A stretch of 64,000 nucleotides of DNA, from assembly GCF_001447785.1 (NCBI RefSeq), contig NW_015169784.1:725828-789827 (forward strand), read 5' to 3'. Position 1 is the stretch's first letter. Each line of letters begins with the position of its first letter. The notes under the pieces are model-generated. The model did no database searches, was not told where the DNA came from, and saw only the letters and a program-made list of their open reading frames with translations. The stretch is from Gekko japonicus. Lineage: Eukaryota. Made by a program: the position numbers and the translations under genes. Positions 42,801-45,800 of the stretch are shown one piece after another.

Positions 42801-45800
42801 TCGTTGAAAGAGAACCTACGGGAGATGATTGAAGAATCTGCAAATAAGTTTGGGTAAACCACACTTTTTAATGTTTGTTAGAATTTTTCCCCACTACTTG
42901 AAGGACTCACACGAGAGACGATCGCACCCTGAACCAGATGCCATGGAGCTCATAACACCAACTACTGGTAAAGCAGAAGCTCTCCCTCAGTGCTGAATTT
43001 GCTCTTGCTTTTGAATCGCAAATCTGAATAGTCCTACCATTTGTATTTCTGTTGTGTCTTTCTTCCAAACAAATGAGGGCAGTGTACTTTCTCTCTGCTC
43101 CAGCATCTGTATTGTGAAGACAATGTAGATCCTGATGTACGGGGTCATTCTCAGTGGTGGTTGAATATGTGTGAACCATTTTGGGACTTTTAAGAAAAGT
43201 ATTTAGTATCTTTTACTGCTAATACAACAGTGGGGGAAATATATTTGAAGGTCTTTCCAATGACTCAATTTGATTTTGCAGAATGAAGGATTTAAGAGTT
43301 CAAACCTTCAGCATCCATTTTGGTTTTAAAAATAAATTCTTAGCCAGCGATGTAGTGTATGCAGCTTCTTCTTTAATGGAAAATACGGAAAAGGATGAAA
43401 GCGGAACTGATAACTTTATCAAGGCTTTGGATAGTCTTTCCAGGTAATATGTGCTTGCTTTTTTAGGCATTATTTTCCTGTGACTTACTTAACTGCAGTT
43501 AAGCAAAATCATCTGCATGCTTGTGATTGTGTGTCACGGGTAACCAGAGTTAGTTTTTATCTTGAATTCTCCACATAAAGGAGGGGGGAGGAACAAGATA
43601 TGTGTGTCGTACAGGAAGGGTTTGTGTATACATGAGCCAAGCAAGATGACAGGATGGGTTTAGTTTCTTAGCTTTCCTTTTCAGTTGACAGCTTGCTTTC
43701 TTTTTCACTGTATTTGAAGAAGCATGCGTACACATGAAAGCTTATACCCAGAATTAAACTTGTTGGTCTTAAAGGTGCCGCCGGACTCAAACTTTGTTCT
43801 CATCTTTCTCCTGTATTCCCCTTCCTTTAGAAGTAACCTGGATAAGCTGCACCAAGGGCTGGAGCTAGCAAAAAAGCAGCTGTGTGTCATTCAGCGCACT
43901 GTGGCCAGCTGCATCTGTACCAATCTCATAATTTCGCAGGGACCGTTCCTTTACTGCTACCTGATGGAGGTAAATTTTCCTTGTACTTCTTCCTTATTTC
44001 TAAAAGTCTTAATTTGGCATGCCAAACCAAGTTTTAACAGTTCACTACCAGGACAGTTTAGTTTCACAAACCTAATTAATACTGTAGCAGGTTGTTGATT
44101 TTGGGGGAAACTTTGGAAGCCACACTATCTGTCTCTATTTAAAACAACAATAGCAACCTAAAATTTTGCATTGCATGAACAGTATTTCTGAGCAAAATCA
44201 AGGCTTTGGATAATCTAGGCTGCTAGTATTTCAGAATACTGTTCTTGTACCCTGGAAGCTGTGTGTCAGATATCATGCCCATAACAGAGTCTTCTGAACT
44301 TTTATTTGTCTTAACCGCAACTTTGCATACTGCTGGACATGACCCTTTTGAAACTTAGCAAGAGTTATCTGGCGGAGGGTGGGCGGGCAGCATGACTCCT
44401 TATCACTTGCGCACATCTAGATAGGCTGTCTGCTCTGCAGCTTTTCTAAAGGCATTACTGCTTCTTTTGCCTTTTCTGGTGTAAATAATTTTGTTTTCCA
44501 GGGAACACCAGATGTGAAATTGTTCTCCAGACCAGTATCCTTGTGCCTGCTTAGTAAATACTTGCTCAAGTCCTTCATTTGTTCTGTAAGTTCTCTATTT
44601 AAAGCAACAATAGCAACCTAAAATTTTGCATTGCATGAACAGTATTTCTGAGCAAAATTAGTAAGGCTGCTAGTATTTCAGAATACTGTTCTTGTACCCA
44701 GGAAGCTGTGTGTCAGATATCATGCCCATAACAGAGTCTTCTGAACTTTTATTTGTTTTAACTGCAACTTTGCATACTGCTGGACATGACCCTTTTGAAA
44801 CTTAGCAAGAGTTATCTGGCGGAGGGTGGGCGGGCAGCATGACTCCTTATCACTTGCGCACATCTAGATAGGCTGTCTGCTCTGCAGCTTTTCTAAAGGC
44901 ATTACTGCTTCTTTTGCCTTTTCTGGTGTAAATAATTTTGTTTTCCAGGGAACACCAGATGTGAAATTGTTCTCCAGACCAGTATCCTTGTGCCTGCTTA
45001 GTAAATACTTGCTCAAGTCCTTCATTTGTTCTGTAAGTAACTTAATCTTTCTCCTTCTAGACATGGGTAACCAGAATAGAGGTTCCCTTTACCTCAGATA
45101 ACATTTGGGGTTTTTTTATTTTTTTAATTAAGCAACATACTGAGTCAAAGACTGACTGTTAAAGAGTAGCAGTATTGGAAGAATGGTGAAAAGGAACTAC
45201 ATTATTTCTGAGGACCTATGGCTTGGTTCAATATGAACAAGCCTTGTGTACATTCATGTGCCCTTCTGCCCTTGTGTGTTCCAGTTCAATTAATTACTTG
45301 TGGTCAAATGCAAATTGTACCGTATCATTACCTGCAAACTGTTGCTTGTTGCTTGCCTTCTGATTCACGGTTACAAGTCATACTAGCATACAGTAACTAT
45401 AGTTTACAAAGAGAAAGTAGCTAATTTGATTGGAGTGTGCAGGCACAAGGCTTGTTCACACAGTGCCAAAAAAATGGTTTGGTGTTTCATGTGACCCAAG
45501 CCTATGTGCTTGGAGAACAACATCTCTTCTTTAGTCCTTTGAGATGGTGAAGAAATTACAGATCTACAAAAGAAATTAAAATGTTCTAGGCAACTAAAAG
45601 CAGTCCTGCTGTGTTTTGTGGTCTCTTTGGTAAGCATTTCATCCACTTCAACATGTTAAGTTCTTTACGGTGCACTTAACAGTTTAATTATTGTTGTACG
45701 CTACAGAACGTCTTTTAAAAATGATTGTATTAAAGTGTGTTAAATGTAAATTACCTTTAGTGTAATAAAAAGAACATAAAGCTTAGCATGTGTTTAATTA

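Follow-up and report, generated by a model that had tools for sequence, protein, structure and literature searches.

False exon gain from divergent haplotypes has been described as a class of assembly error (PMC9516828). The false duplications described there are mostly split by a gap and at times by wrongly filled sequence; among the heterotype cases an exon and its flanks occur twice in one gene with allele-like divergence, and in the GABRG2 example an apparent exon loss stands alongside an exon gain. The read-based criteria for such cases are half depth, discordant pairs, and one-copy k-mers. Mutually exclusive tandem exons are adjacent, equal in length and phase, and were duplicated together with the intron (PMC5740500, PMC6071210). 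Their exclusion can be achieved by steric clash, with less than 50 nt from donor to branch point, by a U2/U12 mismatch, or by a frame shift (PMC5740500), and duplication of a stem-loop arm has been proposed as the origin of docking/selector exons (PMC6071210). Real duplications made by replicative repair (FoSTeS/MMBIR) are arranged head-to-tail; next to the junction they show substitutions and short deletions, and most of the single duplications had microhomology or microhomeology there (PMC6902434). In people, CDC45 exon 15 is in frame, ends in a donor at c.1440, and encodes 28 aa that form a core helix of the C-terminal alpha/beta domain II (DHHA1); the exon is skipped in patients and its loss is pathogenic (PMC11219862). 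No report of a CDC45 exon duplication was found in the literature searched, and PMC7617313 mentions exon skipping alone.

We analyzed a 64,000-nt stretch of Gekko japonicus DNA (the window), in which the CDC45 coding span extended from 27797 to 47709 on the plus strand and comprised exons 1–9, 11–14, 15a, 15b, and 16–18. The longest nearby exon showed 100% matches to the named CDC45 proteins of G. japonicus and Gekko kuhli, and the G. kuhli CDC45 differed from the protein of the window at several residues. When either exon-15 copy was used, the splice model of the window reproduced the named G. japonicus CDC45 (P0002, 523 aa) exactly. A search of the PDB placed the exon-15 peptide on residues 453–480 (of 566 aa) in CDC45 chains, with E values of 1e-10 to 7e-9. 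This position, the length of 28 aa, and the donor at c.1440 (PMC11219862) indicated that the preliminary description had named the exon rightly by human numbering, and its assignment to the C-terminal DHHA1-like region agreed with its encoding a core helix of the DHHA1 domain (PMC11219862).

Upstream of CDC45, a Pfam scan of 131 frames placed some of the exons of UFD1 and C22orf39. UFD1 was represented by at least four exons between 16296 and 22986 on the minus strand (Pfam UFD1_N1 and UFD1_N2), divergent from CDC45. Two C22orf39/PANTS-like exons were located on the minus strand at approximately 460–590 and 3414–3665; the upper one matched Pfam PF11326 (E 1.5e-16), and the lower one, identified by a motif, is presumably an exon of this gene. 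An inverted repeat of 147 nt (1952–2098 and 2274–2420, 99%) was bracketed by a 14-nt direct repeat (approximately 1940–1953 and 2469–2482); this region (1940–2482), within an intron of the PANTS-like gene, resembles an insertion that duplicated its target site and was inverted internally. Downstream of CDC45 (47750–64000), no Pfam match was obtained in 150 of the 156 frames of at least 48 aa; therefore, no claudin gene, such as the one that follows CDC45 in mammals, was assigned to this region. A GC-rich stretch at 53.2–53.8 kb held a 130-aa frame.

Tandem Repeats Finder reported the region 44132–45038 as the highest of its 15 rows, with a period of 447, 2.0 copies, 96% matches, and a score of 1674. 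By self-BLAST, the region consisted of unit A (44132–44591, 460 nt) and unit B (44592–45038, 447 nt), which were 95.9% identical and abutted with zero spacer, and the whole window contained no N bases, so that no open gap lies between the units. Unit A (plus strand) carried the 3' 370 nt of CDC45 intron 14, copy a of exon 15 (44502–44585, 84 nt, 28 aa, phase 0-0), and 6 nt of the donor; unit B, also on the plus strand and 13 nt shorter, carried 357 nt of intron, copy b (44949–45032), which was identical to copy a and encoded the same 28 residues, and again 6 nt of the donor. The interval between the two copies (44586–44948, 363 nt) was frame-neutral with GT-AG ends, and the A/B junction within it (44591/44592) was blunt, with 0 nt of microhomology when exact matches were counted. 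A complex indel at 44198–44216, approximately 68 nt into the unit, made A longer than B by 13 nt net, and four substitutions were found outside the indel block (44144/44604, 44253/44700, 44310/44757, and 44316/44763). A feature that the preliminary description had not mentioned is that no difference occurred beyond unit position 185, which left the final 275 nt identical; for five uniformly placed events the probability of such clustering was approximately 0.01, and that of so long an identical run anywhere was 0.06. In total, A and B differed by approximately 5 events in 460 nt (1.1%). These results confirmed what the preliminary description had reported of the doublet, namely two units of about 450 bp sharing an identical 84-nt phase 0-0 exon with the same acceptor and a donor identical to +6, and every intronic difference that it had listed, including the indel of about 13 bp, was present.

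Given the differences between A and B, exon-15 copies without a mutation are expected by chance with P=0.36; therefore, the untouched exon is no sign of selection, and selection on the copies was rejected as an explanation of their identity. A transposon origin of the unit was likewise rejected, as 44132–45038 was not overlapped by any of the families of dispersed repeats listed for the window.

The acceptor sides of the two copies were identical over 185 nt, and the donors were identical to +6. With a matrix built from the other splice sites of the gene, both copies scored 9.4 for the acceptor and 6.3 for the donor, inside the training range. The equal scores and the identical GT-AG sites are consistent with the earlier claim that both copies would be splice-competent. 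When both copies were joined, the frame stayed open and coded for 551 aa, compared with 523 aa for one copy, in agreement with the proposed in-frame addition of 28 aa. If a two-copy allele existed, double inclusion would be its default splicing.

CDC45 proteins of vertebrates were compared using the best 120 of 443 matches from one search and the best 120 of 737 from another, which gave 190 distinct sequences; 18 unnamed sequences were dropped and the 172 named homologues were counted. Among these 172, the exon-15 segment was present once in 168, absent from 4, and present twice in none, and the spacing of 43 residues across exon 15 was kept in 156 of the 160 named homologues having both flanking motifs. 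The best 120 of 737 matches to this region included no protein with a doubled exon 15. The named G. japonicus protein P0002, which formed a cluster of one sequence, had a single exon-15 copy, as did the named CDC45 of G. kuhli. A search with a 66-aa frame crossing the A/B junction gave no candidate, which is weak evidence since only predicted proteins of 36–116 aa were searched. The AlphaFold model of P0008, based on a 28-sequence alignment, had a mean pLDDT of 47.7 and was too poor to use; it agreed with exon 15 forming two helices. Among the named models in the set P0038, P0116, P0133, and P0003, exon 15 was cleanly skipped in two (Phrynosoma and Rhinatrema isoform X3), and the G. kuhli CDC45 model was without a portion of exon 11 and the whole of exon 12.

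The CDC45 gene in the window also lacked an exon. Exon 10, which is frame-neutral and encodes 40 aa in 120 nt, is expected between exons 9 and 11, in an interval of 3402 nt (38858–42259, plus strand), but none of the six reading frames of the window contained it. The best score of the exon-10 query in the window was 42, equal to that of shuffled queries, compared with a self score of 215 and a score of 242 for the control, the next exon. Exon 10 belongs to the best-conserved parts of the alignment and was present in 160 of the 172 named homologues listed, including G. kuhli; of the 12 proteins without it, both neighboring exons were intact in just two, P0002 and a chicken isoform model (P0133). 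Within the interval, two versions of one intronic stretch were found on the plus strand at approximately 39604–39799 and 40207–40793, about 400 nt apart, and they differed by indels of 14, 299, and 108 nt. In an essential gene, a true homozygous loss of a conserved exon would be far less probable than a faulty assembly. That P0002 (523 aa) has no exon 10 either is probably due to a loss in the assembly that passed into the annotation, and among the six members of the gecko cluster P0008 there may be a G. japonicus protein of full length that includes exon 10. A likely assembly fault at exon 10, 2–5 kb upstream of the doublet, raises the prior probability of a fault at exon 15.

Three further doublets, all non-coding, were found in the window, so that with the exon-15 doublet there were four tandem doublets in 64 kb, whose second copies totaled 1175 nt or 1.8% of the window. 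The doublet at 2824–3416 (2824–3143 and 3144–3416) had a 47-nt indel at unit position 46. In that at 7623–7925 (approximately 7623–7781 and 7787–7925), a 20-nt indel was located about 17–22 nt into the unit, and 5 unmatched nt lay at the junction. The third, at 59236–59874 (59236–59558 and 59559–59874), had a 7-nt indel at unit position 35 and 14 substitutions, and was 4.3% diverged. On realignment, the apparent spacers of the three extra doublets resolved into copied upstream sequence with a deletion after it. In all four doublets an indel of 47, 20, 13, or 7 nt started at most 70 nt from the start of the unit, a placement with a probability of about 0.006 under uniform placement, and in all four the left copy was the longer (P=0.125 by chance). 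Counting exact matches only, junction microhomology across the four was 1, 0, 0, and 0 nt, with 0 nt in the exon-15 doublet.

Seventeen pairs of dispersed repeats from the same window, realigned with the same gap costs, served as a control. These pairs, which share copies and are thus not independent of one another, contained 309 substitutions and 37 short indels but no indel of at least 7 nt, whereas the four tandem pairs contained 25 substitutions and 4 indels of at least 7 nt. Counted by pair, a long indel was present in 4 of 4 tandem and 0 of 17 dispersed pairs (Fisher P=2e-4, with a cut-off of 7 nt that was picked after seeing the data); with a 6-nt cut-off, the numbers were 4 of 4 and 5 of 17 (P=0.02). 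The long indels were thus tied to the doublets, and either blocked the merging of two alleles or arose with the duplication.

Since three look-alike doublets and a missing conserved exon occur in the same window, the doubling of exon 15 is likely an assembly error. We consider it a false exon gain, with a probability of approximately 0.7, in which two alleles of a stretch of about 450 nt were written head to tail; each chromosome of the animal probably carries a single exon 15. Like the heterotype false duplications, the locus shows an exon with its flanks twice in one gene at allele-like divergence, and as in the GABRG2 example the apparent gain is accompanied by an apparent loss (PMC9516828). 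The divergence of about 1.1% is near the heterozygosity of 0.5–0.8% reported for other gecko species, which was 0.5% genome-wide in one (PMC12142722) and approximately 0.8% in the high regions of another (PMC5901865). The preliminary description had pointed out that the second unit is not a perfect copy, but this fails as a sign of a real duplication, because allelic differences are typical of heterotype false duplications (PMC9516828). Its own alternative, two haplotypes stitched in tandem, was better supported by the class of doublets, the early indels, the control pairs, and the missing exon 10.

From the units, their differences, the three similar doublets, and the absence of exon 10, all observed directly in the window, we infer an assembly mechanism of the following kind. 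One haplotype would have contributed a contig that stopped 6 nt past the exon-15 donor, and the contig after it, derived from the second haplotype, would have begun 370 nt upstream of exon 15. The long indel and the substitutions near the start of the overlap could have hidden the overlap of about 450 nt from the assembler, and the unrecognized overlapping pieces would then have been placed in succession, either by direct joining or by gap filling. In that case, the true transcript would have one exon 15 as well as exon 10, and would encode a CDC45 of about 563 aa, like that of the Sphaerodactylus gecko (P0008).

Several observations stand against this assembly error. The copies are not separated by an N gap, unlike most false duplications, and the locus further differs from the cases in PMC9516828 by its small unit (0.45 kb) and in being judged here from the assembled sequence alone. 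The stitching of two alleles explains the differences near the start of B only loosely, and does not explain at all why B is the shorter in four of four doublets. The 4.3% divergence of the doublet at 59236 is high for two alleles. A CDC45 without exon 10 has a precedent as well, since the chicken isoform model P0133 lacks exactly that segment.

We regard it as doubtful that the duplication is real and was caught at its birth, with the DHHA1 core helix either repeated (28 additional residues) or the repeat avoided by exonic arms competing for one docking site. The first of these forms, a real duplication on one or both chromosomes by error-prone replicative repair with both exons spliced in, is unlikely. 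It would require a template switch back by 460 nt that was immediately followed by errors, and its product would be a CDC45 with a 28-residue repeat of a core helix, probably a hypomorphic allele. Such a replicative event predicts both the clustering of the A/B differences beside the junction and B as a deleted copy; the indel and substitutions within 185 nt of the start of B and the head-to-tail order resemble the FoSTeS/MMBIR duplications, in which small deletions and substitutions flank the junction (PMC6902434). The gapless contact of A and B, the equal splice scores of the copies within the training range, and the open joined frame of 551 aa also favor a real duplication. However, the junction had 0 nt of microhomology, and unlike the described duplications, which are large human events, the gecko unit is only 0.45 kb long and four events of the same anatomy occur within 64 kb (PMC6902434); the non-coding doublets and the missing exon 10 point to assembly instead. 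At the protein level, P0002 has one copy, no doubled form was among the best 120 of 737 matches to the region, and the junction-crossing frame found no candidate among predicted proteins of 36–116 aa, which weighs little. The nearly fixed spacing across exon 15 in vertebrates (156 of 160) and the pathogenic loss of this core helix in people (PMC11219862) also argue against an insertion here. In Meier-Gorlin syndrome 7, the same in-frame 28-aa exon is lost by splice variants (PMC11219862), whereas the gecko shows an apparent gain. The headline of the preliminary description, a real duplication with a 28-aa insert, was thus not supported, with 0 of 172 named homologues doubled.

The second form, a real duplication whose two copies are used alternatively, is very improbable. 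Here one arm of an exon-intron helix would have been copied, and two exonic arms would now compete for a candidate docking site of 12 nt at 45439–45450 (plus strand), a perfect complement of the middle of exon 15 (44539–44550 and 44986–44997) and a weak lead. The predicted 12-bp exon-intron helix had an energy of -22.9 kcal/mol, which was reached by 4 of 1000 shuffles; it was the strongest of 32 exon-intron comparisons in CDC45 and was matched by 1 of 130 window tiles, but it was noticed post hoc and was not significant after 32 comparisons (approximately 0.12). In the two-copy fold, the site paired with copy a at a probability of 0.27, which would loop out copy b, but its pairing with copy b was 0.0; in the one-copy fold, it mostly paired with the nearby intron (0.68, compared with 0.04 for the exon). 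The site overlaps an arm of an intronic hairpin (45223–45248 and 45444–45469) and would exist in a one-copy gene too. The intronic parts of the unit showed no excess pairing with either flank, for which 70 of 100 and 8 of 40 shuffles were as good. Competition of duplicated stem-loop arms would fit the proposed origin of docking/selector exons (PMC6071210), and transcripts carrying one copy would agree with the single copy in the protein model. Like known mutually exclusive exons (PMC5740500, PMC6071210), the two copies are adjacent and homologous, with the same length and phase, intact splice sites, and the intron included in the duplication; unlike them, they are identical rather than diverged, and no named homologue among the 172 is doubled. 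The standard routes of exclusion were inapplicable to this locus. The interval of 363 nt with the same 3' end as intron 14 speaks against a steric clash, and the exon length of 84 nt with an open joined frame, and the GT-AG sites with identical donors, leave neither a frame shift nor a U2/U12 mismatch. Because the copies are identical, the protein would be the same whichever of them was used, and spliced reads could not tell them apart. The suggestion that the copies act as nascent mutually exclusive exons therefore found no support.

The doubling of exon 15 is most likely not a real feature. Were it real, it would be a rare case of an essential replication protein with an exon duplicated at zero divergence, in which the origin of mutually exclusive splicing could be tested; it would yield no new isoform except one with a 28-residue repeat of a core helix, and its three sister doublets would mark an unusually active, error-prone process of short duplication in this genome. 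If it is an assembly artefact, as we favor, CDC45 of G. japonicus is displayed here with one surplus exon and one missing exon, and approximately 1.8% of the window consists of second copies of short doublets. In that case, a blunt junction combined with a long indel near the start of the unit would be a useful flag for discounting similar doublets.
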